NCBI GenBank assembly: GCA_016934335.1
Contig: JAFGTC010000035.1
Span: 208-64,207, forward strand
Length of the DNA stretch: 64,000 nucleotides
Direction of reading: 5' to 3'
From: Candidatus Omnitrophota bacterium
GTDB lineage: Bacteria; Hinthialibacterota; Hinthialibacteria; Hinthialibacterales; Hinthialibacteraceae
A model generated the notes under the pieces. It worked only from the letters and a program-made list of their open reading frames with translations. It did not search any database and was not told where the DNA came from. Position 1 is the first letter of the stretch; each line of letters begins with the position of its first letter. Of the stretch, positions 42,834 through 63,057 are shown piece after piece. Made by a program: the position numbers and the translations under genes.

Positions 42834-43277
42834 CTATACAAATAGTTTCATCGCCGAAATGAGCCGCTTATACCATGGCTTGTTATAGAGAATGACTTTC
42901 TCAACCGCATGCGATAATAGTTCAGGATCCAACGGTCGGCCGAGATAAAAACGAATCCGGTGTTTACGCAAATGGCTTCGCTCCTGCCAGGAATATTGAT
43001 CGGAAATAACGATGATCTGGGAAGGCTTGATAATTCCCTTTAAGAGCCATGCTGCATAATCCAAATCCTGATTTCCCTCGTTTTGACCAATGATGCAAAG
43101 ATCGTATTTCTCATGATCCGCATGATCCCACATGTCCATATCGGTGTTTGAAAAAATGAGTTCTCGGGAATTATCTGCATTCAGGTCTACCAAGATGTCT
43201 TTTTCGGATTGATTGAGCCCCAATGCCAGCATGCGAACCTTATCTTTCATTTTCGCCTTTTTGAACATTACGCTCAC
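42834..43277 (-). CDS. Stand-alone degenerate receiver-like (CheY-fold) protein
   Basis: A beta-alpha pattern VRMLALG / YDLCIIG / IIVISD / FYLGRPLDPELL aligns by eye to CheY, but the acidic pocket and the phospho-Asp are replaced. Weak call. Confidence 0.4.
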   Translation of the reverse strand: MSVMFKKAKMKDKVRMLALGLNQSEKDILVDLNADNSRELIFSNTDMDMWDHADHEKYDLCIIGQNEGNQDLDYAAWLLKGIIKPSQIIVISDQYSWQERSHLRKHRIRFYLGRPLDPELLSHAVEKVILYNKPWYKRLISAMKLFV

Positions 43278-43436
43278 CTCTTTAATGAGATCCGGTTATT
43301 CGAATGATCCTGATCGGCGAGAAATTAAGATAATCGCTTGAAAGATCGTAGACTATTCTATCGCAATTTTAATTTTTGAGTCATTTATTTGCTGGAAAGT
43401 ACCAGGGAAGCAAGATATGAGAAGCAAGCAATGATT

Positions 43437-43479
43437 AAAAAAAAGAGCGAACATAAGTGGAATTCCGCTCTTGTTCGCT
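43437..43479 (-). terminator. Strong intrinsic terminator (unit 1 of tandem paralogous pair)
   Basis: On the minus strand: AGCGAACA-loop(18)-TGTTCGCT, followed by C and U8. Confidence 0.6.
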
Positions 43480-43576
43480 AATAAATTCTTGCACGCATTT
43501 GTATAAAAGACACCGCCTGCTCATCAAAAGCTTCAGCCAAAAAGAAAAAATCAGAAAAATTTTAAAAAATTAACAT

Positions 43577-43619
43577 AAAAAAAGCGAACAAAAGTCAGGG
43601 CATCCAACCATTGTTCGCT
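43577..43619 (-). terminator. Strong intrinsic terminator (unit 2 of tandem paralogous pair)
   Basis: On the minus strand: AGCGAACA-loop(21)-TGTTCGCT, followed by a U-run. The stem sequence is the same as in unit 1. Confidence 0.6.
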
Positions 43620-43870
43620 GCAAGCATTGAAAAGGTACGTGTATAAGACACTCTGCCAAAACAAAAACTTTAACCTGTTATTAATTTTACAATAGATAGA
43701 AGGTAGGATGGCCGCAAATAGAATCACAGCCCGCCAACTTGTTCCTCAATTAACCGCCTATTGAGTCAAGTCGCGATATACCTCATTCTATAGGCGGAAT
43801 GAAAGGGCAGTCAAACTTGAGATCAATTATAAGTCTATACCATATAAGATCATAAAATACAGATATTTAT

Positions 43871-45268
43871 TCATCCTATAATTCTATGCATCCTTGATTG
43901 GATATCCTGCGCTTTTCCGGCCATGTTATTATTTTCAAGCGGATCGTTCTTTAAATCAAAGAGGAGAGCGCCTTCTCCAAATCCTTCTACTAACTTATAT
44001 TGTCCGTCAAAAACCAATTTCCAGTCATTTAATCCGGAGAGAACATACTCGCGATGATCGTTCTTCTCCCCTCTCATTAGAGGCATCAAAGAAAGGCTGT
44101 CCATATCGCCGGGAATAGGTAAATCGGCATAGTCTAGAAATGTGGCGGCTAAATCCATGAGACTCACCAGCGCATCGCTGACAACCCTGTGCTTCACTCC
44201 CGGCCCCGCCGCGACTAGAGGAATCCCAACCGACGGCTGATAAGGAACCGACTTCCCCCAGCGGTCATGATCGCCCAGCATCTCGCCGTGATCGCTGCTG
44301 TACACAATCAATGTATTTTCAAGTTCACCGCGCTTTTTTAATTCCTCGATATAAAGCGACGTCCAGCGATCAATGTTTTCCACCATTTCGGAATAGTTGC
44401 GGCGTATTTTCGTATGAGTCTCCGCATCGAATTGGGTATTGCTGTTTGGCGGAGGAAAATCAACGCCGTCATACAGGGCGTGCATGCGTCGAGTTACGTC
44501 CCAAGGATCGTGCGGGCCGGTAAAGTTGACTTGAAGAAACCAAGGCTCGCCTCGGGGAACGCCCCGAATCAAATCCAATCCGTTCTGACCGATCCAATTG
44601 TCGCAGTACGCTTCATCGGGAAGCAGCGTTGGGAATGTTGCGCTTTTTCCAGTTTTACGCCGCTGCATAAAATCCTGAATATGCGTCTCGCGCAGTTTTC
44701 TTTGCTCCAGATAAAACATGTAGGGATCTTTGGGAACATCCTTCCCGCTGTTAATGGCGTCCCATTTCCCCGCGTTATCGATGCCGTCTGAAAATCCCCA
44801 TTCGGGAAGAAGATGCTTTCCTTCCAAGCCCCAGGTTTTCGAGGCTTTATGCAGATCGAATTTGCCGCATCCCAACACTCGATAGCCCGCATTTCGGAGC
44901 AAGGTATAAAAAGTAGTCTGATCGAGCGGATAATCGACGCCGTTGTTCTTGACGCGGCAGCGTGAATATTCCTTCCCCGAAGCCAGCGAAGCCCGCGAAG
45001 GAGCGCACAAGGGAGACGGGCAAAACGCTCGCGTAAAACGCACGCCTCGTTTCGACAGCGATTCGAGAGCCGGCGTGCGAACGGGTATCTCCCTCGTAGT
45101 GGATATCCAATCGAATCGGTGTTGATCGGGCAGCAATAAAAGGATATTCGGCTGACTGACAGGCCGGATCGATGCGGCTTCCGCTTGGATAGACGACTTG
45201 GATGACAAAAGACTGGAAGCGGCGCCGGCGCCGATGGTCTTTAAGAAATCCCGTCTGGTCTTATTCAT
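43871..45268 (-). CDS. Cys-type sulfatase with Tat-type signal
   Basis: MNKTRRDFLKTIGAGAASS leader. PNILLLLPDQHR. Formylglycine motif CAPSRASLASGK. Start set to M10. Confidence 0.85.
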   Translation of the reverse strand: MNKTRRDFLKTIGAGAASSLLSSKSSIQAEAASIRPVSQPNILLLLPDQHRFDWISTTREIPVRTPALESLSKRGVRFTRAFCPSPLCAPSRASLASGKEYSRCRVKNNGVDYPLDQTTFYTLLRNAGYRVLGCGKFDLHKASKTWGLEGKHLLPEWGFSDGIDNAGKWDAINSGKDVPKDPYMFYLEQRKLRETHIQDFMQRRKTGKSATFPTLLPDEAYCDNWIGQNGLDLIRGVPRGEPWFLQVNFTGPHDPWDVTRRMHALYDGVDFPPPNSNTQFDAETHTKIRRNYSEMVENIDRWTSLYIEELKKRGELENTLIVYSSDHGEMLGDHDRWGKSVPYQPSVGIPLVAAGPGVKHRVVSDALVSLMDLAATFLDYADLPIPGDMDSLSLMPLMRGEKNDHREYVLSGLNDWKLVFDGQYKLVEGFGEGALLFDLKNDPLENNNMAGKAQDIQSRMHRIIG

Positions 45269-45373
45269 CTTCCCTCCCCTTCTCGCCTGAAGCATTGGTT
45301 CTAAATCGTCAAAATCATACCATGAATCCGCGTTGCTTTATATGAATCAATTCCGGCTCAAGAAACGACCATT

Positions 45374-47284
45374 TTATTGAATTTGGACATGCGCCCGCCA
45401 TTCGGCATTGTTTCCATGGACGCGCAGCATGAGAAAACTCATCGTCTCATCCGCCGGATTATCCGAGCACACGCCGGTAAATACCTCAAAATCGTTGGAA
45501 GATTGACATTGCATAACGATCTTGCCCGGCGAATCGCGCAGTTTCCATGAAATATTCAATGCTCCTTCACATTTTCCCGATCGAATGTCTCGAAGAAAAT
45601 CATACCCGTTCGAATCGTTAAAATGTTCGGCGTCTTCGAGCGAGACATCGCACGATTCCAACTCTCCGCGAATATGATAGAAAAGATCGTATCGATGCGA
45701 TTGATCGGATTTGGCTTGGATGAAATCCTCAATGCCGTCGCCCGCCAAACCAACGCTTCGCTGAATATCCACCCCGTCATACGCATCCTTCACCCCCGCG
45801 ACGACTTTACCTTCTTTATAGGAAATTAAATATCCCCCGCAGCGTTTTTGCCGTTGGCCGTCGACGACTAAAAGATTATGCGCGGCGGACGACCGGTACC
45901 AGGCGTTCAAAGGAATGCCATAGCCGGACGTTCCCAAATCGGGAATCAAAACATTTCCTTTTCCGAAAAGAATGAGATTCAAACGATCGAGATGATCGTG
46001 CCCGCCGCCGTATGGGCTGAATTTCAGATACGCATTCACATTTTTGTTTCGCAGAATGGCGACGCCGGAATCCTTAAACAGGACGCTTGGAGAGGCCAAT
46101 GTTTCAGATTCAGGAAGATCGACCGGGCCATACAACAATGCGTTGATGGATGTTCGATTTTTATTTCGATAGAAAGAAGACAAAGCGCTGCGCAAGACAG
46201 GATCGTCCCACAATGACGCCGCCGCTTCGTACAAGGAATCATAACTGTTGAGCGACTGCCCCGGCCATCCGTCATTGGCGGCGGGGAATTCGTCATTCGG
46301 AAAAGCGAAACGGATGGGAGACGTATACATCAACCGGAACTTTTCCGCTCCCGTAAGATCGCATCCTTGCGCTCGGGCGGCGATATAAAGCGGCTGCAGC
46401 GACGAAATCGTATAGAAGTGGTAACTGATCGAACCTTCAAACCAGAAGCCGTCTCCTCTGACGCCCTTCTGAATCTGGCTTCGAAGCCCATATTCGCCGT
46501 CAATGGCCTCCTGGATCAGTTTTTTGTCGCCTAGAGCGAATCCGACCAAACCGACGGCGGCGTTATGCCAACTGGGAATATTGTGAATCGATCTGGTTTG
46601 TTTATGGATAAATTCCGCATCAGGCCGCAAAAATTGATCCGCGATAATCCGCGTCTCCGACTCGCTCAGTGAAGTGCATACATCCCAATACGCTTCCGCC
46701 AAACGCACCAATTGAGTGGCTTCGTCAAGCGATTGCTCGCGAATCATTCCCTTCCCGGCATGACTGCCATGCGGTTCGAATTGATCGAAATGATCGGCGT
46801 ACCAAAGCAGAACTTTTTTTGTATACTCCAACCATTCTCGATCGCCGGTTATGCGAAACAGCACAGCCGACTGAGCGGCGGCGGACGAGATCTCGGAATG
46901 AACGATGGATCGCCAGCAATCGTCATACGGCGGGCCGGAATAAACGCGCCCGCATCCCGTACAAACATGCTCATGAGGTTTTTGGGGATCGAATCGCAGG
47001 CGCCGGGCGTCGTCGTCGCAATAATATTCATGCAGCCAGCCGGTCACCCCCAACGGCGGATGTTCATAGCGCGACATAGTGCGGCGGACGCTGCTCTTCA
47101 TTTGTTTGACAATTTGCTTCGCCCATTCATGCGCGGCGATTTTTTCATTCACCTGCGCCCAATCGACGCCTCGCGAACCGGGATTGGACGCCGGCGCCGC
47201 CAGGCAGCACGGCCGCCATGCCAGAATAAAGAACATGCCAAACGTCAAAAAGTTAAAAGCGCATCTACAAAAACTCTTTTTCAT
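45374..47284 (-). CDS. Heparinase II/III-like / alginate-lyase-fold polysaccharide lyase family protein
   Basis: The C-terminal block GGGHDHLDRLNLILFGKGNVLIPDLGT..YG...WYRSSAAHNLLVVDG is typical of the heparinase II/III domain. The N-terminal half is an alpha/alpha toroid. ATG 47284 is preferred over TTG 47293. Confidence 0.7.
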   Translation of the reverse strand: MKKSFCRCAFNFLTFGMFFILAWRPCCLAAPASNPGSRGVDWAQVNEKIAAHEWAKQIVKQMKSSVRRTMSRYEHPPLGVTGWLHEYYCDDDARRLRFDPQKPHEHVCTGCGRVYSGPPYDDCWRSIVHSEISSAAAQSAVLFRITGDREWLEYTKKVLLWYADHFDQFEPHGSHAGKGMIREQSLDEATQLVRLAEAYWDVCTSLSESETRIIADQFLRPDAEFIHKQTRSIHNIPSWHNAAVGLVGFALGDKKLIQEAIDGEYGLRSQIQKGVRGDGFWFEGSISYHFYTISSLQPLYIAARAQGCDLTGAEKFRLMYTSPIRFAFPNDEFPAANDGWPGQSLNSYDSLYEAAASLWDDPVLRSALSSFYRNKNRTSINALLYGPVDLPESETLASPSVLFKDSGVAILRNKNVNAYLKFSPYGGGHDHLDRLNLILFGKGNVLIPDLGTSGYGIPLNAWYRSSAAHNLLVVDGQRQKRCGGYLISYKEGKVVAGVKDAYDGVDIQRSVGLAGDGIEDFIQAKSDQSHRYDLFYHIRGELESCDVSLEDAEHFNDSNGYDFLRDIRSGKCEGALNISWKLRDSPGKIVMQCQSSNDFEVFTGVCSDNPADETMSFLMLRVHGNNAEWRAHVQIQ

Positions 47285-47330
47285 TGCCTCCAAATCCTTT
47301 CCACAGAGCGTTTCCTAAGAACTGTAGCCG

Positions 47331-47365
47331 CCCACTACCCACTATCAACTATCCATTACCCACTG
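47331..47365 (-). repeat. Five tandem heptads (minus-strand RNA CAGUGGG UAAUGGA UAGUUGA UAGUGGG UAGUGGG) spanning the stop codon of the aminotransferase gene
   Basis: Plus-strand heptads CCCACTA CCCACTA TCAACTA TCCATTA CCCACTG, read directly. CTA at 47349-47351 is the annotated stop. Confidence 0.85.
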
Positions 47366-48503
47366 CCTTAAACGCCTTTTTCAGAGATTCGCAGACCAGT
47401 TTGACGTCATCCTCTGTCATTTGAGGATAAAAAGGCAGGGTCAATTCTCCGTCGGAAATTTTTTCCGTCAAAGGACAATCCGCTTGCTCGGCATAATCGC
47501 GATAGGCGGAAAAACGATGAATGGCGGGATAATGAATGGAAGTCTGGACGCCGCTTTCTTTCATGTTTTGAATCAGCGCTTCGCGTGCGGCGGGATCGCG
47601 CAGCAAAATCGGATAGATATGATATCCAACCTCGTCTTCCTTTCGATCGAGAAAAGGAATCATGATCTCATCGACATCGCCGAGCAATTCATTGTAACAT
47701 CGATAAATTTCCGCTCTTCTTTGGAGATTATCGGGCAGCCGCTTCAACTGGCTCAATCCAAGCGCGCTGCGAATTTCATCGATGCGGTAATTATACCCCG
47801 GTTCGACGACATCATACGAAATGGCGCGGCCTTTGTGCCGATCCAGCGTTAACGTAGTCATGCCATGCGAGCGCAATTTTCGAAGTCGATCGGCATAGGA
47901 ATCTTGCTCGACGGCAACCATGCCTCCCTCGCCCGTCGTCATGTTCTTATTGCTGAAAAAACTGAACGCGGCCGCATCGCCGAAAGTCCCGCATTTTTGT
48001 CCATTGCGCGAAGAGAAAATCGCATGCGCGCAGTCTTCGACAACCGCCAATCCATGCTCCCTGGCGACCGGCGAAATTTCCTCCATGCGGCAGGGGAAGC
48101 CGGCGTAATGAACCACCATGATCGCCCGCGTTTTCTCTGTGATTTTTTTCTTGAAATCCCGGGGCGAAAAAGTCCAATCGTTCTCGCCGGCGCAATCCAC
48201 AAAGACCGGTTTAGCGCCCAGGGAAACAATGGTGTTAGCGCAGGCGACGAAGGTCAACGAGGGAACCAGCACTTCATCGCCTGGGGCCACACCGGCGCAA
48301 GCCAAAGCCAAATGAATAGCGGCCGTCCCGCTGGAAACAGCGAATGCGTGTCGAACGCCAAGTTGCTCGGCGAATGTTTTTTCAAAATTCAGCGACCGTT
48401 CGCCCATTGTCAACCAGCCATCCCGTATGGGCGCCATGGCGCTTTGAACATCTTCTTCCGTAAAATCAGGCGTAAAAAGAGGAATTTTCCAAATAACCAT
48501 CAT
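47349..48503 (-). CDS. DegT/DnrJ/EryC1/StrS-family PLP-dependent sugar aminotransferase
   Basis: PLP-lysine block AAFSFFSNKNMTTGEGGMV. N-terminal FEKTFAEQLGVRHAFAVSSGTAAIHLAL. Confidence 0.85.
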   Translation of the reverse strand: MMVIWKIPLFTPDFTEEDVQSAMAPIRDGWLTMGERSLNFEKTFAEQLGVRHAFAVSSGTAAIHLALACAGVAPGDEVLVPSLTFVACANTIVSLGAKPVFVDCAGENDWTFSPRDFKKKITEKTRAIMVVHYAGFPCRMEEISPVAREHGLAVVEDCAHAIFSSRNGQKCGTFGDAAAFSFFSNKNMTTGEGGMVAVEQDSYADRLRKLRSHGMTTLTLDRHKGRAISYDVVEPGYNYRIDEIRSALGLSQLKRLPDNLQRRAEIYRCYNELLGDVDEIMIPFLDRKEDEVGYHIYPILLRDPAAREALIQNMKESGVQTSIHYPAIHRFSAYRDYAEQADCPLTEKISDGELTLPFYPQMTEDDVKLVCESLKKAFKAVGNG

Positions 48504-48545
48504 TTCTTTCCTATCAGTCTAAATAATCTTCAAAAACTACCATGA

Positions 48546-48580
48546 TCAACTAAACACTATTCACTACCCACTACTCACTG
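48546..48580 (-). repeat. Five tandem heptads (minus-strand RNA CAGUGAG UAGUGGG UAGUGAA UAGUGUU UAGUUGA) spanning the stop codon of the glycosyltransferase gene
   Basis: Plus-strand heptads TCAACTA AACACTA TTCACTA CCCACTA CTCACTG. CTA at 48564-48566 is the annotated stop. Confidence 0.85.
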
Positions 48581-49649
48581 TTTTAAAGTACCATGCCTCC
48601 AACTTCTGCATTTCTTTTTCGCGGTCGCCCCGCTCCTCCGCAATGCGGCGATTGATGCGCCCCCACTCGGCGATGCGCGCCGAGTCGCGAGCGATTTCTA
48701 TCATGGCCGCTGCTAGACGATCTTCATCGCCGGGCGCCGAAAACAACCCGTTTCGGCCTTCTTCGATCCATTCATGATTGGCGGGCAAATCGGAAACGAT
48801 GACGGCCAATCGCGCCGCAAACGCCTCCAATAAGGAAAGAGCGGTGCTGTCGCTGGATGGGACGGAAAGAAAGACGTCGGACGAAAGCAAAGCGTCTATC
48901 AACTTATCTTGAGACAGCCAGCCGGTAAACAAAACATGATCGCCTACATCGAGTTCGCCGGTAAGTTCCTCGAGTTTTTGTTTGTCGGCGTCATCGCCGA
49001 CCAGGATCAAGCGGCTGGAGGGCAGATGAGAAAGCGCTTTCTTGAACGCCCGGATGATGACATCGATGTTATAAACGGCGCGAAGTCGGCGCGTGCTGAT
49101 AAAAACAAGATCGCGGCCGCCGCGAATCCAACGGCGATATTCGTCGTCCGGCTCATGCTGAAATTGCGCAAAATCGATGCCCCACTGAAACAGCCGCACA
49201 TCGATTTTTTCGCCGGACAGTTCTCTCGCTTTACGGCAAAGCGCCTCGGCGTCGCCGGTGATGAAATCGGCTTTTCTCAGCGCATGCGATACGGCAAATC
49301 GCACGAGAGGATTTTGATCGGCCAGGATGTTCAAATCCGAACCCCAGGCGGTCAACACTAGCGGCGTGAATCCGCTCAAGGCGCCCCAGTAGCCGTAGCC
49401 GGTTACATTATGAGCATGCACCACATCCGGCGCCCATCGTTGAATCCAGCGCCGAACCTGGAGCGCCGCATAAAGATGACGCAGCGGCCCCCAGCCATGC
49501 CGCGGCGCAATGACTTGCATAACCTGCGTAAAAGGAAACGAGCCGGGATCATCGGTTAAAAAGAGGATCTCATGGCCTCTCCGCAGAAACCATTCCACCA
49601 TGAAATGGTTGTGCACCGATCCGCCGTCGCCGAGATAACATATTTTCAT
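48564..49649 (-). CDS. Glycosyltransferase family 4-like (GT-B fold)
   Basis: N-terminal MKICYLGDGGSVH. C-terminal donor-binding region ...PSSDSTALSLLEAFAARLAVIVSDL..NHEWIEEGRNG, an E-x7-E-like motif. Confidence 0.75.
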   Translation of the reverse strand: MKICYLGDGGSVHNHFMVEWFLRRGHEILFLTDDPGSFPFTQVMQVIAPRHGWGPLRHLYAALQVRRWIQRWAPDVVHAHNVTGYGYWGALSGFTPLVLTAWGSDLNILADQNPLVRFAVSHALRKADFITGDAEALCRKARELSGEKIDVRLFQWGIDFAQFQHEPDDEYRRWIRGGRDLVFISTRRLRAVYNIDVIIRAFKKALSHLPSSRLILVGDDADKQKLEELTGELDVGDHVLFTGWLSQDKLIDALLSSDVFLSVPSSDSTALSLLEAFAARLAVIVSDLPANHEWIEEGRNGLFSAPGDEDRLAAAMIEIARDSARIAEWGRINRRIAEERGDREKEMQKLEAWYFKTVSSG

Positions 49650-49759
49650 GATTCAGCACTCAATAAAACGATCCACCTCCATCAGGATAAAAAATGGAAA
49701 TGGCGGCTCTCGCAATGATCATTCTGCCGCGTTTTTCCGCATTCGCATGGGAGGATCGT

Positions 49760-52282
49760 CTAGTTTTTCCAAACAAATTCACCGGACTCGACGCTCCAAT
49801 CCAGCCCGAAAAAGCCGGCGGCGCGCACGCCTTCGCTTCCATGGGTCAAAGCGTCAGATCCCATCACGATGCAATCGGGATAGCCGACCCCCGAAACGAA
49901 ATAGGGTAGCCGATCGGTCAAGCGCATGCCCTTTAATCCGTTGCCGGATACAACGGCGACAGAAGCGAAATCGCTGCCGGGACGCGGACGGACAAACAAA
50001 CAGCACAGATCTTCGCCGTTCAAAACCCGGCCGCCCAACTGAATTGCGCCCTTTCGCACTTGGACGGGACTTTCCGCCAAAAGCGAACTCCAAGCGCCGT
50101 TCGCATCGGCGCCGCCATATAAAATGATGTTACGATCCGGATAGCGGTCGGCCTCAAATTCGGCATCGGGAATCACATCGATCGATCCATTGCCCCTATA
50201 CCAGAATTCTTCCGCATCCAGACGCGCTTTGGCCAGCGCCCAAGCATTTTCTTCCGGATCGCCCTGCGTCCCGTACACAAAGACCATCCGATGGCGGAAG
50301 GCTTGCTTGAACGGCCCGTAACGATGCGGGCCTTTCTGCCATGAATCGGGTCGGTCGGCGACAGTCCAACGATCTTCCTCCCGCTTCAGATGCAGCACAG
50401 GATCCTCGGCGGAACAAACAATGCCGCTGATCACATCGCCGTCCAATTCGACTTGCAGCGCGGCGTTCTTATCAACATGATTCAAATCCAGAGCCAGCCA
50501 GGCGACATTTTCTGTATTTCCGACAAAGCGTCGCATCCCCGGATCGAAGTGAACATGAACCGTACTGGTTTGCAAAGGATGAATTTGCGCCAGAATAGTC
50601 AGCCAATGACTGCGGCTCGATACGCCGGGATTGGCCGTAGAAAATTCGATCTCGCGAATTTCACAATCGCGTGGAATCCGATGGCGAGCGAAGAAATCGA
50701 ACATTGGCCTCCAATCGACGCAATCGGCGCCCGGTTCGTCGGAGCGATCCCACCAATGGCCCGCGCCGGGCTCTTCATGTCCATCGAGATCTCGATGAAA
50801 GGCTTGGAGATGCTCCCGCATGTCGCGCGCCTCCGATACAGGAACATTGTCGTCGGCGTCGCCGTGGAGAATATACACGCCATGGTGCAGATAGTTGCGC
50901 GACAGGCGGAGCGTATCGCTGGCCGCCGCCGCGCGCAGAAGAAAATCATCCATGATAGTGGGTTCTTCACTGCCGCGCCGGATTACATACGACCAGAAAC
51001 TGATCCATCCCGCGCTGGGACCGATAGCGGCGAAACGATCCGGAAACTGCGCGCCGATCTGCCAGGCGCCATGCCCGCCCATGGAATGGCCGGTCAAATA
51101 CGTGCGCTGCGGATCCGTGCGCAGCGCTTCCTGCGCGCGATTCAACACTTCCATGGCGTCCATGCGCCCCCAATCCTCCCAGTCGAAGCCATAAGGGCGG
51201 CGGTTTGTAGGCGCAACGATATGCCCCCATGATTTTCGCGAATAGGCGTCCGCTTGACCGATCGCTTCGACGCTGGCGCCATGCAGCGTTAAAAAAAGCG
51301 CGGGCGGACTTTGCGCATCATCCGGCAAGATGGCGGGCTGCAGCGCATAGTACTGAACGCTGCCGTCTATATCGCTGATAAACGTACGTTTTTGACTCTG
51401 ATCGGAGCGCCGTACTCGCAGTTCGATCGAAGCGCCGTCGATCGTCTCAAAACGATCGCTTGTCTCGCGAATCAACTTAACGTTGACGATAGTTTCACTC
51501 TCCTCTGCAGGCGCTTCCCCCCGCAAACGAAAAGCGGTTTTACGAATAGAATAAGGCAGAATATCGAAAACAGCCGTGACGGTGGGATCGATCTCATTTC
51601 CCGACGCCCGGATCGACAAACCTTTTAAGGTTTTGGAAGACGCATTCACGACAAGCATCGCTGCCCACGCATCCGTCGTTTCTCCAACAACCAAATCCGG
51701 CAGCGTATTGTCTCTTTGACTCAACAAAACAGGCGAATGCGGCGTAACCAGTTTCGCCTTCAACCGTCCTCGGCTGCATAAAAAAAGAAAATCGTTTCGC
51801 CCCGCGCGAAGCGGAACGGGCAGCAGCGTCATTCCCGAACCATAGCGGTCGCCGGTGCGTAAAACGCCGTTCACATAAACCTGATTGTGCCCCGATGCAT
51901 CCAGCAGCATCACTCGGTCGCAATCCGATTGATAGGACATATAGGCATATCCGCCTCTTCGCAAAGCGCGATCTTGGAACCAGCCGTCCTCGCCCGCCTG
52001 GAGAGATGTCCAGGCCGACTCGGCGCCGCCCAATCCCAAAATGGTTTGCCCTTCCCGGGGCGGCGTCCATTGCCCGGAAATGAGTTGCTCTTCGATTACG
52101 TCTTTATGCAGAGGCGTACGGCCCGATTCGACGACGCGGCCGACTACCAGACAATGATCGAACGACGCTTCATCGGGCGCATTTTGCGCATCCCCCCAAG
52201 ACGCCGGCGCACTAATCCCTATAAGCAAAAAAGCAGTAAAAAGAAAAACTCGACAATTGGAAAATTTTTTTACATCATCCAT
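49760..52282 (-). CDS. Large secreted alpha/beta-hydrolase (esterase/peptidase S9-like core) with N- and C-terminal accessory domains
   Basis: Nucleophile elbow TYLTGHSMGGHGAW. HGDADDNVPV acid/His region. Signal peptide when starting at M8 (52282); the ORF track gives 52303. Confidence 0.55.
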   Translation of the reverse strand: MDDVKKFSNCRVFLFTAFLLIGISAPASWGDAQNAPDEASFDHCLVVGRVVESGRTPLHKDVIEEQLISGQWTPPREGQTILGLGGAESAWTSLQAGEDGWFQDRALRRGGYAYMSYQSDCDRVMLLDASGHNQVYVNGVLRTGDRYGSGMTLLPVPLRAGRNDFLFLCSRGRLKAKLVTPHSPVLLSQRDNTLPDLVVGETTDAWAAMLVVNASSKTLKGLSIRASGNEIDPTVTAVFDILPYSIRKTAFRLRGEAPAEESETIVNVKLIRETSDRFETIDGASIELRVRRSDQSQKRTFISDIDGSVQYYALQPAILPDDAQSPPALFLTLHGASVEAIGQADAYSRKSWGHIVAPTNRRPYGFDWEDWGRMDAMEVLNRAQEALRTDPQRTYLTGHSMGGHGAWQIGAQFPDRFAAIGPSAGWISFWSYVIRRGSEEPTIMDDFLLRAAAASDTLRLSRNYLHHGVYILHGDADDNVPVSEARDMREHLQAFHRDLDGHEEPGAGHWWDRSDEPGADCVDWRPMFDFFARHRIPRDCEIREIEFSTANPGVSSRSHWLTILAQIHPLQTSTVHVHFDPGMRRFVGNTENVAWLALDLNHVDKNAALQVELDGDVISGIVCSAEDPVLHLKREEDRWTVADRPDSWQKGPHRYGPFKQAFRHRMVFVYGTQGDPEENAWALAKARLDAEEFWYRGNGSIDVIPDAEFEADRYPDRNIILYGGADANGAWSSLLAESPVQVRKGAIQLGGRVLNGEDLCCLFVRPRPGSDFASVAVVSGNGLKGMRLTDRLPYFVSGVGYPDCIVMGSDALTHGSEGVRAAGFFGLDWSVESGEFVWKN

Positions 52283-52496
52283 CCCACAAAAAAAAATTCG
52301 CATGCGGAAATCCTTTCGATTAATGTGATCCTTTTGTCTGTGGATTTTTCTATTATCATACCGATTATGTCACAAGATTCTGATTTGCTGAAACCGGATG
52401 AATCAAAATCTTTCTCTTTTCAACACATCTCAGGTCTTCTCTTGGGATTTGGAATAAAAAAAACACCATGGGAAATTAGGAGAGAAAAAAAACATC

Positions 52497-53093
52497 ATGA
52501 GAGCATCAAGGAATGAACGCCAAGGTTTCACACTGATTGAACTGCTGATCGTCGTCGCCATCATCGGAATACTCGCCGCCATCGCCGTGCCCAATTTTCT
52601 TAATGCGCAAGTCCGCGCTAAAATCGCTCGCACCGAAGCCGATATGCGCAGCATCAGCACCGCGCTGGAAAGCTACCGGATTGACAGCGGCATCTATCCC
52701 CAATGGGCGGACGCCAACGGCGCAGCCAAGAATCCCGTCAACCGGCGCCTGATTGGACTGACAACGCCGGTCGCCTATATGTCTTCCGTTCCCAAAGATC
52801 ATTTTCTCTGGGGCGCGGCCGGACAACGCATAAACGACACCCAGCATGAAGCCTACGTAACCTACGATTATGTCGACGCCAGGTCCACCGTAAAATACGT
52901 GGGAGCGACAACCCTGGACGTATCTTTCCGCTGCGCAGAATGGCGTCTTGCCAGCGCCGGACCGGACGCCACGATGACCTATGGAGCGGTTCACTCGTTT
53001 GACGCCACCAACGGCCTGAACAGCAGCGGCGACATCGTGCGGACAGGGCCGCGTTCTTCCTACCCTTGCGATGGTTCGTTAGTCGGTAAATAA
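52497..53093 (+). CDS. GspG-like pseudopilin (paralog 3)
   Basis: MRASRNERQG|FTLIELLIVVAIIGILAAIAVPNFLNAQVRAKIA. LTTPVAYMSSVPKDHF. FDATNGLNSSGDIVRTG. Confidence 0.8.
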   Translation: MRASRNERQGFTLIELLIVVAIIGILAAIAVPNFLNAQVRAKIARTEADMRSISTALESYRIDSGIYPQWADANGAAKNPVNRRLIGLTTPVAYMSSVPKDHFLWGAAGQRINDTQHEAYVTYDYVDARSTVKYVGATTLDVSFRCAEWRLASAGPDATMTYGAVHSFDATNGLNSSGDIVRTGPRSSYPCDGSLVGK

Positions 53094-53235
53094 ATCGCCG
53101 GGCTCATCTCACCCGAATCGGCCGGAATTGAATAGAAAATCATACACGGGGGAGAGGCTGCGCCTCTCTCCCGCCAGTTGCTAAAAACTATTGGCAGAAC
53201 AGCCTCATTCGACTTTTTCTATTCATCTCCCTCCC

Positions 53236-53273
53236 AAAGAAAAGAGGATGGAGAGCGTGAACACTCCATCCTC
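53236..53273 (-). terminator. Rho-independent terminator of the 960-aa gene
   Basis: 10-bp stem GAGGATGGAG (53244-53253) / CTCCATCCTC (53264-53273), followed on the minus strand by UUUUCUUU. Confidence 0.6.
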
Positions 53274-53308
53274 GCAAGTCTTCTTTTATTACTTATTCTA
53301 CACGATTA

Positions 53309-56191
53309 TTAGTACAAATACCAATCCAGAACCGGCACGGCGCCATCGGCATACAAACTAAAGTTGTCGATGGCCCAGAATCCTTCGCTTTCGCCCGGAT
53401 CGGCGCCGGCGGCGTTAAAGCGAATCTTCACATCGCCCTGACCGGCGGCTTGTGGAACTTCAAATAAATAATGATCGAATTGAGCGTCTTCTTCGGAATC
53501 GTTCAACGCCATGCGATATGAGAAGATCGGCGTAAAGGCGGCGCCGCCGTCAATGCTGACTTCGATTGAGTAGGCGGAGCTGCTGTTGCCCGGCAGGCAT
53601 TCAGAATCGACGCCCACGACCAAACGGCTGCATGCACTGCAATCAAAAGAAGGACTCGTCAAAGTCGCCGAAGCGCCTTCTTCCTCGCCTTCCGCCCAAA
53701 TGGCATATCCTTGACCGGCAAGGTTATTCAAAGTACGGCCGTCGAAATCGCTTGGACCGTTGCCCGAGATCACGCTGTCAACCATCCGACTTTCAGGAGG
53801 TCGAGTCGCCCACGCCTGGGTTCCGCTGGGAGTATTTTCCCAATCGGCTGGGATGCCGCCCTCAAAACCTTCTGTCAGAATCAACGACAAACCGGCTGTT
53901 GGAGAGATATCATCGACGACGATATCATCGATGGCGATCCACCAATCGTCATTCGGCTCGTAATGGCGGAAACGAACCTTCACATCCGGGCTGCCAGCGG
54001 CGTCGGGAAGCAGAATGTTGACGGGGCCGTACAAGCCGCCGGTCTGCTGCTGATCCGTAAATCCAGCCTGCGGCAAAGGTTCGACGCTTCGCAGAGGAGC
54101 GATGCAGCGATATTGATTGACGAATGTTGCGCCTCCATCGGTGGAGACGTCAATATCGAAGACCGCCTCGCCATTATTGTTCAGTACGGCGGAAACATTC
54201 ATGTGCAGCCAAACCTCGGATGCTCCTTCCGCACTGAAACTGGGCGTGATCGCATCGTGTGAGCCTCCGGCGCCCGGCGTGTTGCTTCCGCCGCCGGCAT
54301 CCGAATCTGAAATCAAGAATTCTCCCGTTGTAGGCGAGCCGTCTGCGGAAGGCGGATTCGCTCTATCCGTTGTAGTCGTCCAAAGCGTGCCTGTTTCTTC
54401 CGCCGTTGGCGTATCCTCAAAGACCCAGCCTTCAAAAACTAAATCGCCATCGCTTTTGCCGTCGAAATTCTCGCTGAAAGGCAGCGCCGGATTTCCCTCC
54501 GCCCCTTCAACCGCGAGATAAATGTTATCGATCGCCCACCACCAGTCGTTGCCGGCGTCGAACATCCCCCAGGTCAAAGTCAGCTCCGAAGCGCCGTCCG
54601 GAATGGGAATCGTAAACATAAGCGCTTCATTATGAGCATCGTCGTGGAAATTCGGATCTTCTACAGGGAGAGAAACCCAGTAAAGCAGTTCGATAGGATC
54701 CCCACCGTCAAAAGAAGCAGTAAGATTCACTTTTTGATTGTCTTCATCACGCCAGCTGGAATTAAACGCCAGTGTGACAGTATCCGTATCGTAGTCAGCT
54801 AATGAGATAGGAGGCGTGCTAAGGTAACTATTATAAGTTCCGACATCGTGACCTGTATCATCCCATTCATCCGGATCAACGATTGCGACAACGCCGATTC
54901 CGTTTATGAATAAAGATCGCTCCTGATCTCCCGCAGCGGCAATCCAGGCATCTTTATCCGCAAAAGCCCAGCCCTGCCATTCAGGCTGCCCATCAGCCGG
55001 CAGTTTCGAGTTATCGATGGTCCAACCTTCGGGAGGAATATTGGTCCAATCGGTCCCGTCGCCGCCGCTTTCAGAGGGGAATGGCTCCAAGGTCAAACCT
55101 TCGAAATCTTCCTTGAAAATGACTTGCAAACCGGCCAGCATGCCCGGAACGGTTTTGGAAGCCACTTCTGAAAATTCTGATCGGGCGCCGTCTGCATCGA
55201 CATACTGCACTCGCGCATACACCTTTACGCTCGATCCAATCGGCAGATTTTCTTTGGGAATGGTAATTTGAGTCAGATCGGTCTCTAATTCTCCGGGACT
55301 GAAAAATACTTTTGTAAAATCAGGATCCAAAGCCGCTTCCCATAGCGTTTTGGCATGAGCAGAATCCAAGGGACTATTAAAATCAGAAGCCTTCAACAAA
55401 AGATCGGAGTATCCAACCGGCTCAACCGTGGTAATTTCGAGCGTCGGCGTATCCGGAGGCGCGATGTCCGCCCCACGAACAACCAGATTATCGAAAGCCC
55501 AGTACCAATCATAATCATGAAAACCATCCTGGCTTTCATTTCCATAAAGACGAAAACGTAATCCTACTGTTGTTGCGCCTTCCGGTTTCATAACAGCGAA
55601 AATCTCATGTCCTATATAATTAGCGTCATCACTATGGTTTGAATTATCCCATATAAATACAGATTCATACGTGGCGCCCTCATCCCACGTTACTTCTAAA
55701 GAAGCAATTTGGTTGTCATTATGTTTGTAGTGACTGTCAAATTCGATAGTCACCGCCACCTGGTCACCGGCATCAACGATGGGACTATCCAACCAGGTTC
55801 GAGCGCCTCGGTCGCCGAACAAATCGGAATCGGCAATCATAATTCCATCAAAGAAGCCTTCGGGATTATTATCTCGATCGCCTCCTTGAATATCCCATTC
55901 AAAGTCAAACAATGCAATCCAACTGGGATAGGGGAAAAGATCGTTATACCCATCTTCTTCAGGTCGAAGTTGAGCGGTGATCGTCCAACCTTCGGGTACA
56001 ATAGTCATGAATTCTCCCGCGGATATAGGCTGCCCTGTTTCGTGATCGATTACATCAGTCAGGGCGCCCGCCGCAGCATCATCAAAATTCTCTTCCAATA
56101 GCACTTGAGCAGAGACGGCCATCGGCAAAAGAATGATCGCGGTTACACAATAAAAAAGTGTTGTTTTTCTCATAACATTCCTTTCCTTCAT
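53309..56191 (-). CDS. 960-aa secreted protein built of four MAM/'choice-of-anchor J'-like beta-sandwich modules plus one Ig-like spacer
   Basis: Signal peptide. Four modules each open with E-[NDG]-F-[DE]-[DG] (ENFDD, EDFEG, ENFDG, EGFEG) and close with W-x-A-[IF]-D-[ND] (WYWAFDN, WWWAIDN, WWIAIDD, FWAIDN). The start may be M7 at 56173. Confidence 0.6.
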   Translation of the reverse strand: MKERNVMRKTTLFYCVTAIILLPMAVSAQVLLEENFDDAAAGALTDVIDHETGQPISAGEFMTIVPEGWTITAQLRPEEDGYNDLFPYPSWIALFDFEWDIQGGDRDNNPEGFFDGIMIADSDLFGDRGARTWLDSPIVDAGDQVAVTIEFDSHYKHNDNQIASLEVTWDEGATYESVFIWDNSNHSDDANYIGHEIFAVMKPEGATTVGLRFRLYGNESQDGFHDYDWYWAFDNLVVRGADIAPPDTPTLEITTVEPVGYSDLLLKASDFNSPLDSAHAKTLWEAALDPDFTKVFFSPGELETDLTQITIPKENLPIGSSVKVYARVQYVDADGARSEFSEVASKTVPGMLAGLQVIFKEDFEGLTLEPFPSESGGDGTDWTNIPPEGWTIDNSKLPADGQPEWQGWAFADKDAWIAAAGDQERSLFINGIGVVAIVDPDEWDDTGHDVGTYNSYLSTPPISLADYDTDTVTLAFNSSWRDEDNQKVNLTASFDGGDPIELLYWVSLPVEDPNFHDDAHNEALMFTIPIPDGASELTLTWGMFDAGNDWWWAIDNIYLAVEGAEGNPALPFSENFDGKSDGDLVFEGWVFEDTPTAEETGTLWTTTTDRANPPSADGSPTTGEFLISDSDAGGGSNTPGAGGSHDAITPSFSAEGASEVWLHMNVSAVLNNNGEAVFDIDVSTDGGATFVNQYRCIAPLRSVEPLPQAGFTDQQQTGGLYGPVNILLPDAAGSPDVKVRFRHYEPNDDWWIAIDDIVVDDISPTAGLSLILTEGFEGGIPADWENTPSGTQAWATRPPESRMVDSVISGNGPSDFDGRTLNNLAGQGYAIWAEGEEEGASATLTSPSFDCSACSRLVVGVDSECLPGNSSSAYSIEVSIDGGAAFTPIFSYRMALNDSEEDAQFDHYLFEVPQAAGQGDVKIRFNAAGADPGESEGFWAIDNFSLYADGAVPVLDWYLY

Positions 56192-61383: not shown

Positions 61384-63057
61384 ATGAACAGAAAATGCAT
61401 CCTTTTATCCTTGGCCTTTACCTGGATCATTTCGATGGATCCGTCTTTTGCGCAAACCATCGATGCGGATAACGATTTTATGTTCATCCATCATTCATGC
61501 GGGCAGAATTTATTGGACGGCGGTCTGCGGGAGGCATTGATCGGGAAAGAATTCATCGATGAAGTCAACGATATTTATTACGGCGATATGCTTTCTCCCG
61601 ATCCGGGGCGTCCTGCTTCATTGGGTGATGTTCCCGGGGATAACACCAACATGAATCACTGGATCTTTTGGTTCAATGATTACTATGCAGGAATTCGGCG
61701 CTTTGACGGCGAGGACGGCGTTAATTCCATCATCATGTTTAAAAGCTGCTTTCCCATCAGCGATATCTATGAAGATGGATCGCCGCCCGGGGATCCGTTT
61801 GACGAGAATCAAACGCTTGCCAATTATCAAAGCGTCTACCGAAAGTACGGCGATCCGAATGGGCATTATACGTACGACGGGAGCACGTACCGACCGTTAG
61901 AGCAGATATTCAGGGCTCATCCGGAGACGCTGTTTGTGGCGTGCACGTCGCCGCCTCTTCATTATTCTCCTTATGACGCCACAAGCGACGAAAATGCGGC
62001 CCGGGCGAGACGCTTCGCCGACTGGTTGAAAAATGAATGGCTGCCTGCTTATAACGCCGGCAATCCGGGGATGAACAACGTCGCCGTCTTCGATTGGTTC
62101 GACATACTGGCCTATCCCGACGATCATCCTCTCCATCCCAATCGGCTGCGGCAGGAATACGGCGGCGACGGCGGCGATTCGCATCCCAATGACGCCGCGA
62201 ATCGAGAAACGGCGCAGATTTACTCCGCGTTCATTACGGAAGCCTATCAACTGTGGCAATCGGGAGACGTCGCCCTGCCGACGCATACTCCAACGCATCC
62301 CTCGACGCCGATTTCTACTCCGACGCCGACGCCTGCGTCGACTCCCACAGCCACGCCGGCCCCGACGCCGACCCCGACTCCATTCGACATCGAACCGGGC
62401 ATGTTGATATTGCAAAAAGGCGTCCATCCAAGCGAAGTCTTCGAGGGGGCGTGGGATGCCGTCATAACCGATTTATGGGCGAGCAATGCGCAGTTAGGCG
62501 GGTGGGATGAATTGTCGACTTATCGCGACGATCAGGAGCGCCACCGTATCTTGATTCGATTCGACCTGGGATCGATCCCGCCGGATCAAGTCATTGAAAG
62601 CGCTTATTTATCGCTCTATCATCTGGGCAGCGAAGGCGATAATGATGCGCAGCAGATCGCCATCCATCGGATGACATCGGCATGGGCGGAAGGGAGCGGC
62701 GACAATCCATGGCCCTTGGAAGGATATGCTCCCGATGGAGCGACCTGGAGTCATGCGGCGCCCGGCATTCCCTGGACGACGCCGGGCGGCGATTTTGAAC
62801 TGGAGCCGATTGGCGAAACGCTCATTCCACCCTTCGAAAACGCCGATTGGCTGTCGATCGAGATTACGGATTATGTGAAGGAATGCGTCGAAAACAATGC
62901 GCCTAACTATGGCGTCATGATTCGCGCTACAGAGGGCGAATGGTACGGCCATCGTTTCGCCAGCAGCGATTACGAGACGGCTGAGTTGCGACCTCGTTTG
63001 ACGATCGCCATTGCACAGGAGTCGCCAGTCGACATACGGGACTGGATCCTATATTAG
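61384..63057 (+). CDS. Secreted two-domain protein: SGNH-like N-terminal domain, Pro/Thr linker, C-terminal DNRLRE-type domain
   Basis: Signal peptide. FIHHSCGQN / GDSHPNDAANRE, SGNH-like and tentative. Linker PTHTPTHPSTPISTPTPTPASTPTATPAPTPTPTP. C-terminus HRILIRFDLGSIPPDQVIESAYLSLY...IHRMTSAWAEG is typical of DNRLRE domains. Confidence 0.5.
   Translation: MNRKCILLSLAFTWIISMDPSFAQTIDADNDFMFIHHSCGQNLLDGGLREALIGKEFIDEVNDIYYGDMLSPDPGRPASLGDVPGDNTNMNHWIFWFNDYYAGIRRFDGEDGVNSIIMFKSCFPISDIYEDGSPPGDPFDENQTLANYQSVYRKYGDPNGHYTYDGSTYRPLEQIFRAHPETLFVACTSPPLHYSPYDATSDENAARARRFADWLKNEWLPAYNAGNPGMNNVAVFDWFDILAYPDDHPLHPNRLRQEYGGDGGDSHPNDAANRETAQIYSAFITEAYQLWQSGDVALPTHTPTHPSTPISTPTPTPASTPTATPAPTPTPTPFDIEPGMLILQKGVHPSEVFEGAWDAVITDLWASNAQLGGWDELSTYRDDQERHRILIRFDLGSIPPDQVIESAYLSLYHLGSEGDNDAQQIAIHRMTSAWAEGSGDNPWPLEGYAPDGATWSHAAPGIPWTTPGGDFELEPIGETLIPPFENADWLSIEITDYVKECVENNAPNYGVMIRATEGEWYGHRFASSDYETAELRPRLTIAIAQESPVDIRDWILY

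Follow-up and report, generated by a model that had tools for sequence, protein, structure and literature searches.

Why should two consecutive genes in one sugar operon both end inside matching arrays of stop-containing heptads? The question is raised by a 64-kb stretch of DNA (the window, which in this text always means the whole stretch analyzed) from Candidatus Omnitrophota bacterium (GCA_016934335.1, contig JAFGTC010000035.1, forward-strand positions 208-64,207), a Candidatus Hinthialibacter-like bacterium from sediment. On the minus strand, the operon includes a gene for a 361-aa GT4-family glycosyltransferase (48564-49649; Pfam Glycos_transf_1 and Glyco_trans_4_2), which is followed by a gene for a 384-aa DegT/DnrJ/EryC1-family sugar aminotransferase, hereafter DegT (47349-48503; Pfam PF01041, E 5.6e-115). 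A heparinase II/III-like gene with an alginate-lyase fold according to Pfam (45374-47284) lies next, and a sulfatase gene comes after it. The two junctions that flank DegT carry the arrays.

Each array consists of five heptads of the TAGTGRR type, amounting to 35 nt, and is preceded by a 7-nt head of the form TTTAARR that is common to both. On the minus strand, array A with its head (48546-48587) reads TTTAAAA CAGTGAG TAGTGGG TAGTGAA TAGTGTT TAGTTGA, and array B with its head (47331-47372) reads TTTAAGG CAGTGGG TAATGGA TAGTTGA TAGTGGG TAGTGGG. The heptads proper occupy 48580-48546 and 47365-47331, respectively, with the letters that a first-pass annotation had given for them. Elements A and B can be aligned in register across 42 nt with 76% identity, and within the heptads positions 1-5 (TAGTG) are conserved and positions 6-7 are variable. 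Four UAG triplets recur at period 7 in array A, three UAG triplets and one UAA recur at the same period in array B, and in both a stretch of 21 nt suffices to place TAR stops in every frame. Period 7 is also reported by TRF for both arrays (4.9 and 3.6 copies), which are imperfect repeats with 77-83% matches.

The arrays start within the last codons of the genes upstream, as had been recognized on first reading. The GT4 open reading frame (ORF) ends in ...WYFKTVSSG-TAG with its stop codon at 48566-48564, inside array A, and the DegT ORF ends in ...LKKAFKAVGNG-TAG with its stop codon at 47351-47349, inside array B. In both cases, the array covers the last seven codons, and its second TAR serves as the in-frame stop. 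The distance from the end of the array to the next start codon is 43 nt for array A (DegT ATG at 48503; minus-strand spacer 48504-48545) and 47 nt for array B (ATG of the heparinase-like gene at 47284; minus-strand spacer 47285-47330), in agreement with the distances first annotated. The longest ORF of the heparinase-like gene begins at a TTG (47293), and its start is likely the ATG at 47284, which has GGAGG before it. Both downstream starts keep a purine-rich Shine-Dalgarno sequence of their own, GGAAAGA for DegT and GGAGG for the heparinase-like gene. Transcripts of DegT are represented in two metatranscriptomes by three short fragments, all of which lie inside DegT and none of which covers an array.

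Chance does not account for arrays A and B. The pattern TAGN4TAGN4TAG has three matches in the window, all of them within the two arrays, where 0.05 would be expected, and none of 100 shuffled versions reaches three. When four consecutive heptads are scored against TAGTGGG, the arrays reach 24/28 and 22/28 and the next best site on either strand reaches 16/28, so the earlier statement that the 64-kb window holds no further copy is borne out for both strands. The stop codon was scored for 44 ORFs of the window, and 42 of these have no such array. An assembly artefact is excluded because both arrays are found independently in a Logan contig (L001) from a public sediment run. In the source metagenome run, array A is unique, and B-like sequence occurs at least once more, in different flanks and at similar depth (run X1). 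In a strain with ~98% identity, array B differs by point substitutions only; among the fragmentary Logan contigs from eight runs, the single strain contig that spans array B has point changes and zero 7-nt indels.

The history of the arrays can be followed in a Candidatus Hinthialibacter MAG locus (L482), in which DegT is 86% identical, the gene order is the same, and arrays are present at both the GT4-DegT junction (J1) and the DegT-heparinase junction (J2). The J1 array has period 7 and 9.3 copies, including a 21-nt (three-unit) duplication that is 100% identical, and the J2 array is degenerate and split, with a fold no better than that of shuffled sequences (z -0.94). Copy number differs by whole units, with approximately 10 at L482 J1 versus approximately 6 in the window. 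Several UAG positions in the L482 array read TAA, CAT or GAG, and its GT4 gene stops at the TGA of a TAATTGA heptad, which indicates that any stop type is usable. Upstream of DegT, the spacer behind array A matches its L482 counterpart at 93% in the start-proximal part; the spacer that follows array B, before the heparinase-like gene, has 62% identity to its own L482 counterpart. The arrays match best across junctions: array B is identical to part of the L482 J1 array at 32 of 34 positions (94%), versus 60% at fourfold-degenerate sites of DegT, and this value exceeds both orthologous comparisons (A versus J1 and B versus J2), which are themselves poorly conserved. The non-heptad head TTYAARGCAGTGGG is common to all four junction copies in the window and L482, indicating that a defined element was copied, beyond the amplification of a heptamer in place.

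More distant relatives lack the arrays. Junctions around the same GT4-DegT pair in relatives with 73% identity have none, the closest representative genomes in a genome-collection scan with DegT (73% identical and lower) are without them, and they are absent from a 21-kb locus around a 58%-identical DegT of Ca. Hinthialibacter antarcticus. The first-pass annotation had regarded absence at orthologous junctions as an argument against its proposals; the arrays are present there at 86% identity and absent at 73%. Heptad arrays also occur at L018, L039, L062, L064 and L074, where they are unrelated in position. The tails of GT4 orthologues part right after a WY dipeptide, which is followed by FKTVSSG, FKALGN, KELIQQTKK or EESCRVRPGAPIVDT. 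This divergence exactly at the beginning of the element indicates that the tail is dispensable and that the site has been invaded repeatedly. In one relative (L483), a different hairpin element occupies the same GT4 end (fold z -5.65). The idea that DegT is an inserted cassette can be rejected, because its adjacency to GT4 is ancestral (present in L002, L482 and L483).

Arrays A and B thus are tandem 7-mers that are inherited, being present at both junctions of the congener with 86% identity, and that change by slippage. They have overwritten the C-terminal tails of GT4 and DegT, which are dispensable, and now supply the stop codons of these genes. The explanation that we favor, with moderate confidence, is that they are old, partly decayed, slippage-prone heptanucleotide repeats that are tolerated at gene ends by virtue of their three-frame stops. 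One element would have been copied to the adjacent junction before the two species split, perhaps by gene conversion, template switching or another form of local copying. Their persistence at gene ends might then be due to the stop that each heptad carries, with a period of 7 taking successive stops through the three frames. Expansion, contraction or encroachment on the ORF would thus alter a few terminal residues at most, without any read-through, and the G-rich, stop-bearing strand is expected to be tolerated immediately behind a gene in sense orientation and nowhere else. This property probably explains why the arrays overlap gene ends. Under passive tolerance, a dedicated trans-acting factor would be unnecessary, and any effect on downstream expression, whether through spacing or through a leader free of C and of structure, would be incidental and could be tuned by copy number.

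Among the three readings first offered for the arrays, a small dispersed repeat therefore fits best, given the abundance of the heptanucleotide type, the presence of arrays at the same junctions in the 86% relative, and the B-like copy in the metagenome. Certain observations nevertheless count against parts of this explanation. The imperfect arrays of the window are poor substrates for slippage today, and passive tolerance leaves unexplained why the two arrays found in 64 kb should share a single sugar operon, a non-random distribution. The head present in all four junction copies also speaks against mere amplification of a heptamer on the spot. Furthermore, the 94% identity between array B and L482 J1 is not predicted by pure neutral decay; it suggests that the sequence is constrained or that a conserved master copy has renewed it.

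Searches for an RNA function at these junctions covered several types of element. A Pfam scan of all 45 window ORFs of at least 70 aa gave no match to the HutP or TRAP families or to other RNA-binding regulators, and no transposase or RAYT-like gene was seen among these ORFs. A 147-aa ORF (43277-42834) was considered as a HutP candidate and rejected; it has no Pfam match and by eye is closer to a degenerate receiver domain. Folding of both junctions and of both arrays reveals no structure, the folds being no better than those of shuffled sequences (z about 0 to +1, with values of +0.86 and +1.06), and a scan of 43000-53500 found neither an intrinsic terminator (a GC-rich stem-loop with a U-tract) nor a promoter at either junction. 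With Rfam 15, the whole window yields one tRNA only at the gathering score, and positions 47200-48700 yield no match at E values up to 10. No complementary arm lies within 150 nt of either array (best 9/14) or elsewhere in the window. A programmed frameshift site at UUUAAA is dismissed by its wrong frame, CsrA sites by GGA counts of 0 and 1 in the two arrays, and RfaH ops, Chi and KOPS by the lack of a match to their consensus sequences.

Arrays of the same general type are common in phage and environmental contigs. TAGTGRR arrays of 2.7 units are found in at least 119 IMG/VR contigs, bona fide Mu-like phages included, compared with 51 contigs for a TACTGRR control heptad, an excess of TAG over TAC of at least 2.3-fold. 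Two regularities stand out. In 39 of 95 arrays (41%) among the IMG/VR matches listed, the first to third TAG terminates a frame that is free of stops for 100 codons or more, where approximately 16% would be expected from single TAGs over three frames. Also among the matches listed, a complementary C-rich arm lies downstream of 30 of 90 arrays and upstream of 0 of 93, an order that would follow if the stop-bearing arm had to lie on the side of the incoming ORF. Neither the TAGTGRR unit nor the frequent supply of stops or the leading position of the stop-bearing arm in inverted pairs was found described in the literature searched. CAGTGRR and TGGTGRR arrays are likewise abundant among the matches listed, and UAG is thus not the defining feature of these arrays. 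The G-rich strand is sense to some neighboring genes and antisense to others, and individual contigs (L138, L107, L085 and L155) carry repeated inverted pairs of G-arm and C-arm whose loops are conserved. The combination of head and array was found in the metagenome collection at only two unrelated loci (L201 and L202), both of them hairpins, which means that the head is not widespread. A lineage-specific 21-mer, TAATKGATAGTKGATAGTGGG, has 0 matches in IMG/VR.

Several other explanations must be weighed against tolerated repeats. The C-free, unstructured tract might be bound cooperatively by a protein that reads the 7-nt register, either as single-stranded RNA or as DNA. Such a protein could be a HutP-like XAG reader, a cold-shock-domain protein, S1 or another factor, and binding might affect termination-reinitiation, downstream translation or mRNA stability at the junctions flanking DegT. 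At least four XAG-type triplets at exact 7-nt spacing reproduce the geometry of the HutP contacts U498, U505 and U512 (PMC2425495), the lack of structure would leave the tract accessible, and a comparable proposal has been made for TAACTGA repeats (PMC4679880). The conserved TAGTG with its variable positions 6-7, the similar 43- and 47-nt distances to the next start, and the excess of cross-junction identity over fourfold sites would all be understandable as marks of a binding site. This explanation is nonetheless unlikely. No window ORF encodes a HutP or TRAP domain, an architecture of two sites plus a terminator is absent, and at orthologous junctions the arrays are poorly conserved, differ in copy number, and have UAG replaced by TAA, CAT or GAG. 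Arrays are also missing from the 73% relatives that have the same gene pair, the G-rich strand of the wider family can be sense or antisense depending on the neighbor, and CAG and TGG variants are common too among the matches listed. The specific suggestion of a HutP/TRAP-type RNA element in the first-pass annotation is unsupported on the same grounds, since no gene for such a protein is found in the window, the junctions have no terminator and no second, linker-separated site, and several UAG positions are not retained in the orthologous array. A broader version, in which (YRGTGRR)n is a widespread bacterial and phage cis-element that a conserved single-strand-binding protein (for example, one with a cold-shock domain) reads in 7-nt register at stop codons and between cistrons, thereby controlling termination, reinitiation or mRNA stability, is decidedly doubtful. 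If it were true, the G-arm-first order, the 41% stop placement and the 94% identity would reflect selection, beyond tolerance.

The arrays could also be the remnant G-rich arms of a mobile or dispersed hairpin element of REP/MITE type, whose full form would be G-arm, loop and C-arm, the arrangement found in phage and metagenome contigs. Spread to two junctions and the identity with L482 J1 would then result from copying of a conserved master element. The recurrent paired arms of the wider family, the hairpins that match the head pattern, the cross-junction identity above both orthologous comparisons, the hairpin at the GT4 end of L483, and the B-like copies with other flanks in the source metagenome are all consistent with this origin. 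It is quite improbable all the same, as the window contains no complementary arm and no visible transposase or RAYT-like gene, L482 J2 folds no better than shuffled sequences, the 21-mer is missing from IMG/VR, and the head pattern recurs at two unrelated metagenome loci only. A further candidate is a selected three-frame stop cassette, a translational insulator that would block read-through and frameshift products and uncouple neighboring cistrons. Both arrays do place stops in three frames within 21 nt and supply the real stop codon, and in IMG/VR the arrays listed often end long frames, with the stop-bearing arm always facing the incoming ORF. The cassette idea holds as a property of the arrays and is very unlikely as a selected trait: any 7-mer repeat that contains a stop will have three-frame stops automatically, 42 of 44 scored ORFs manage without an array, the same arrays include stopless CAGTGGG-type units, CAGTGRR is itself abundant in array form, and five or more units far exceed what a fail-safe would need.

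The cyanobacterial STRR heptamers are known heptanucleotide repeats. Heptanucleotides make up the most abundant class of prokaryotic long SSRs with units of 5-11 nt (Mrazek 2007, as summarized in PMC4679880). Members of the LSSR/STRR class resemble arrays A and B in their head-to-tail 7-nt units, mostly intergenic location, patchy phylogeny and slippage-consistent variation of copy number between relatives, whereas the arrays here are short and degenerate, share a non-repeat head, and sit on the 3' ends of ORFs, where they supply stops. A tandem 7-nt unit beyond chance and whole-unit copy change between relatives, which characterize the class, are both found here. TAACTGA direct repeats, for which an RNA-binding protein has been proposed, occur in marine Beggiatoaceae, Cyanobacteria and Bacteroidetes (MacGregor 2015, PMC4679880). 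They too are stop-containing heptamers in short direct arrays (2-6 copies), intergenic and sense to their neighbors, but they lie within a few nucleotides upstream of starts, replace the Shine-Dalgarno sequence, and number 169 sets per genome (PMC4679880), as against 2 in 64 kb here. The arrays of the window instead adjoin the upstream stop, end 43-47 nt before starts that have a Shine-Dalgarno sequence, and have TAGTGRR as their unit.

REP/BIME elements are dispersed short hairpin repeats at gene 3' ends, each an imperfect palindrome able to form a stem-loop. Arrays A and B are similarly lodged directly behind stops within an operon, inverted pairs are frequent in the wider (TAGTGRR)n family, and L483 has its hairpin; in contrast, arrays A and B repeat directly and contain no palindrome, and no RAYT-like gene was seen among window ORFs. 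A TRAP (MtrB) site comprises 9-11 (G/U)AG triplets 2-3 nt apart and is accompanied by an mtrB gene, whereas the arrays have 4-nt spacing, only four to five triplets, and no TRAP-family ORF in the window. The HutP sites of the Bacillus subtilis hut terminator/antiterminator have XAG triplets at 4-nt spacing in single-stranded RNA between a stop codon and the next gene (PMC2425495). At least three XAG triplets with 4-nt spacers are present here as well, in a single contiguous array at each junction. However, HutP needs two three-XAG sites, a 12-17-nt linker, a GC-rich terminator stem and a hutP gene (PMC2425495), none of which was found in the window, and UAG is not conserved in the orthologous L482 array. 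Care should thus be taken not to read UAG-N4 periodicity on two stop codons as a sign of a HutP/TRAP-like riboregulator, when it is also the appearance of a stop-containing 7-mer microsatellite growing into gene ends. The tails FKTVSSG and FKAVGNG are likewise repeat-derived and should not be taken for conserved protein motifs.

The genes hmw1A and hmw2A of Haemophilus influenzae have a 7-bp SSR upstream, and variation in the length of intergenic repeats is reported to affect transcription and post-transcriptional regulation (PMC8262952, PMC12721329). Those repeats are like arrays A and B in being 7-bp tandem repeats that are untranslated and upstream of a gene; theirs are perfect, highly mutable and located in the promoter or 5'-UTR of adhesin genes, whereas those described here are imperfect and intercistronic.

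The two heptad arrays that the first-pass annotation had placed on consecutive stop codons were found again with the same minus-strand sequences. Array A (48580-48546; CAGTGAG TAGTGGG TAGTGAA TAGTGTT TAGTTGA) lies between the ORFs for a GT4 glycosyltransferase (49649-48564) and a DegT/DnrJ/EryC1 aminotransferase (DegT; 48503-47349), and array B (47365-47331; CAGTGGG TAATGGA TAGTTGA TAGTGGG TAGTGGG) lies between DegT and a heparinase II/III-like protein (starting at 47284 or 47293 and ending at 45374), which is followed by a sulfatase (45295-43871), all on the minus strand. Each array begins inside the upstream ORF, encoding the tails FKTVSSG* (GT4) and FKAVGNG* (DegT), supplies the in-frame TAG stop as its second TAR, and ends 43 nt (A) or 47 nt (B) before the next ATG. 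In the window, TAGN4TAGN4TAG occurs three times against 0.05 expected, always inside array A or B; the four-heptad match score is 24 and 22 of 28 for the arrays and no higher than 16 anywhere else on the two strands, which upholds the earlier statement that the window holds no other copy; and both are tandem structures of period 7 (TRF). Motif count, heptad score and TRF period exclude a chance origin. Because the likeness reaches into a 7-nt head (TTTAAAA in A, TTTAAGG in B), the two elements can be aligned in register over 42 nt with 76% identity. A public sediment run, assembled independently, contains a 1.5-kb contig identical to the locus.

The nearest DegT homologue outside the source (86% identical) belongs to a MAG listed at NCBI as Candidatus Hinthialibacter sp., whose orthologous contig (L482) has the identical gene order, GT4 - DegT - heparinase-like - sulfatase. 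Its GT4-DegT junction (J1) carries TTCAAGG CATTGGG TAATTGA TAGTGGA TAGTGGG TAATTGA TAGTGGA TAGTGGG TAGTGGG GAGTGGG GAGTGAT, an array of about 10 units (9.3 copies by TRF) that includes a 21-nt, 100% identical duplication; the GT4 tail is WYFKALGN*, with the TGA of a TAATTGA unit as its stop. At the DegT-heparinase junction (J2), the 5' part is degenerate but retains the GGA-TAG-TT stop context (DegT tail GIQAVRG*); next comes a C-rich, unrelated stretch of about 60 nt, and then the 3' part, AATGGTTAGGGATAATGGGTAGTGGGG, about 30 nt ahead of the start. The arrays are thus inherited, their unit number changes, and they have replaced the protein tails. Conservation at orthologous junctions, raised as a check in the first-pass annotation, holds at both L482 junctions and fails in relatives at 73% identity, which also have GT4 and DegT adjacent but carry no arrays. 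Past a conserved WY, the GT4 protein of one relative (L002) ends in KELIQQTKK*, and those of L483 and L484 end in EESCRVRPGAPIVDT*, where the gene enters a highly stable hairpin of unrelated sequence (z -5.65). We conclude that the heptad element, at both junctions, predates the split of the two Hinthialibacter-like species, that it is younger than the 73% divergence or was lost in those relatives, and that the GT4 tail past WY is dispensable and a repeated target of different repeats. The L483/L484 hairpin (L483 9895-10000) is a near-perfect structure of about 90 nt (MFE -48 kcal/mol) that encodes EESCRVRPGAPIVDT*; it is a repeat of another kind, lodged at the very site past WY where the heptads sit.

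An exact scan of IMG/VR with TAGTGRRTAGTGRRTAGTG (TAGTGRR heptads) matched at least 119 contigs; among the matches listed, these range from 28 to 68% GC and carry 95 arrays, each 3-22 units long, and several are genuine Mu-like phages, assigned by Pfam matches to terminase, Portal_Mu and Gp36. Control heptads matched 51 (TACTGRR), at least 114 (CAGTGRR) and at least 120 (TGGTGRR) contigs, so the family is better named (YRGTGRR)n, UAG not being its defining feature. The Mu-like phage arrays occupy consecutive junctions, like those of the window; arrays at L117 8115-8170 and 8630-8734, and at L138 3268-4596, likewise surround a small gene. In sediment runs, (CCCACTA)n is matched by 31-36-nt unitigs whose depth is 340-600x, whereas this genome stands at 3-10x (about 3x in the marine sediment runs X2, X4 and X5, where the comparison used window 47331-47364), which indicates that such heptad repeats are very abundant in those communities. 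In another contig (L039 5343-5771), inverted heptad arrays bracket a gene for a 122-aa member of the 23S rRNA intervening-sequence protein family (PF05635, E 1e-11), with TAGCGAG/TAGAGAG units upstream on the plus strand that recur downstream on the minus strand. An Anaerolineales MAG (L074 3408-3436) has a C-rich array, CCATTTA CCATTCA CCAATTA CCCACTA, adjoining the start ATG of an ORF that has, by eye, a RecN-like N-terminus and no visible Shine-Dalgarno sequence.

Two regularities emerged among the IMG/VR matches listed, both based on heuristic ORF calls rather than curated annotation. The arrays supply stop codons: 39 of 95 end an open frame of 100 codons or more at their first, second or third TAG, where 5.5% per single TAG, or about 16% over three frames, is expected. 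By crude ORF calls, 51 arrays lie behind a same-strand ORF and 15 behind an opposite-strand one; 26 lie within an opposite-strand ORF, about half of these in its first 30 codons and so probably in upstream leaders. A complementary C-rich arm occurs within 150 nt downstream of 30 of 90 arrays and upstream of none of 93 (distant control regions, 2 of 94), the typical full element being stop-(TAGTGGA)n-loop-(ACCACTA)n-ATG. In L082-L161 the arrays often form inverted pairs that take up the entire spacer, always with the G-rich arm first and with loop sequences common to copies within one contig (e.g., L138 3268-3358 and 4548-4596, L155 3270-3318, L126 9327-9361). A metagenome contig (L201, ~60-150) carries a heptad-built hairpin, CAGTGAG TAGTGGT TAGTGAG TAGTGGA ... 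TATTCAC TAACCAC TAATCACTG, between two putative tRNA-like sequences (by eye). Stop overlap and arm order are what a tolerance filter would produce, since an incoming ORF would read on through a stop-free strand, whereas the stop-bearing strand is harmless there. We lean toward a tolerated simple-sequence repeat: an array of stop-bearing 7-mers does no harm at a stop codon, which would explain its position on two of them; it would persist at gene ends through tolerance, with no dedicated factor acting on it. That the arrays are instead three-frame stops, a reading listed in the first-pass annotation, kept by selection seems quite improbable.

Array B is identical to the second repeat unit of L482 J1 at 32 of 34 positions, whereas the orthologous comparisons (A with J1, B with J2) are far poorer; fourfold-degenerate sites of the two DegT genes are 60% identical (109 sites). 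Elsewhere, intergenic stretches compared between these genomes are 62% to 93% identical, so the array value is high yet not unique. In the source run, array A is unique and a B-like array with other flanks lies on at least one contig of 1.1 kb at similar depth. The pattern fits an element copied between junctions and then constrained or renewed from other copies, and local copying would account for the second array. It keeps alive a protein-binding RNA, but this is unlikely: HutP requires two XAG sites with a 12-17-nt linker around a terminator stem (PMC2425495) and shares only the 7-nt XAG spacing with the window arrays, no window ORF matches HutP or TRAP (Pfam), and neither junction has a terminator-like site or folds better than shuffled sequence. 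A hairpin or mobile remnant, to which the B/J1 identity and the B-like copy also lend some life, is rather improbable; no complementary arm was found in the window or in the 150 nt around the arrays, which have no Rfam match. Among the long simple-sequence repeats of prokaryotes, those with heptanucleotide units are described as most abundant, and a stop-containing TAACTGA repeat family of unknown function is also described (PMC4679880), as are heptanucleotide elements in Geobacter (PMC2700814). TAGTGRR units were not found in the literature searched. The window arrays are lineage-specific members of this known class, intergenic heptanucleotide repeats.

The locus occurs in marine, marsh and other sediment metagenomes, and DegT is transcribed, on metatranscriptome contigs that cover DegT but not the arrays. 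The window also encodes sulfatases, rhamnogalacturonan lyase, a sialidase-like BNR protein, GFO/IDH/MocA oxidoreductases, several prepilin-type N-methyl proteins and ABC/HlyD/OEP exporters. A 590-nt AT-rich gap 3' of the sulfatase gene (43300-43700, minus strand) contains two similar terminator-like hairpins about 130 nt apart, GCGAACAA...TTGTTCGC followed by a T-run; they are candidates for small transcripts or for terminators in tandem. A 147-aa minus-strand ORF (42834-43277) without a Pfam match resembles, by eye, a degenerate CheY-like receiver domain (pseudo-receiver) without the usual acidic pocket context. Within ORF 61384-63057 (Disaggr_repeat / CBM96 matches), a CCGACG-rich tandem repeat of period 6/24 (62317-62378) probably encodes an Asp/Ser/Ala/Pro-rich linker.
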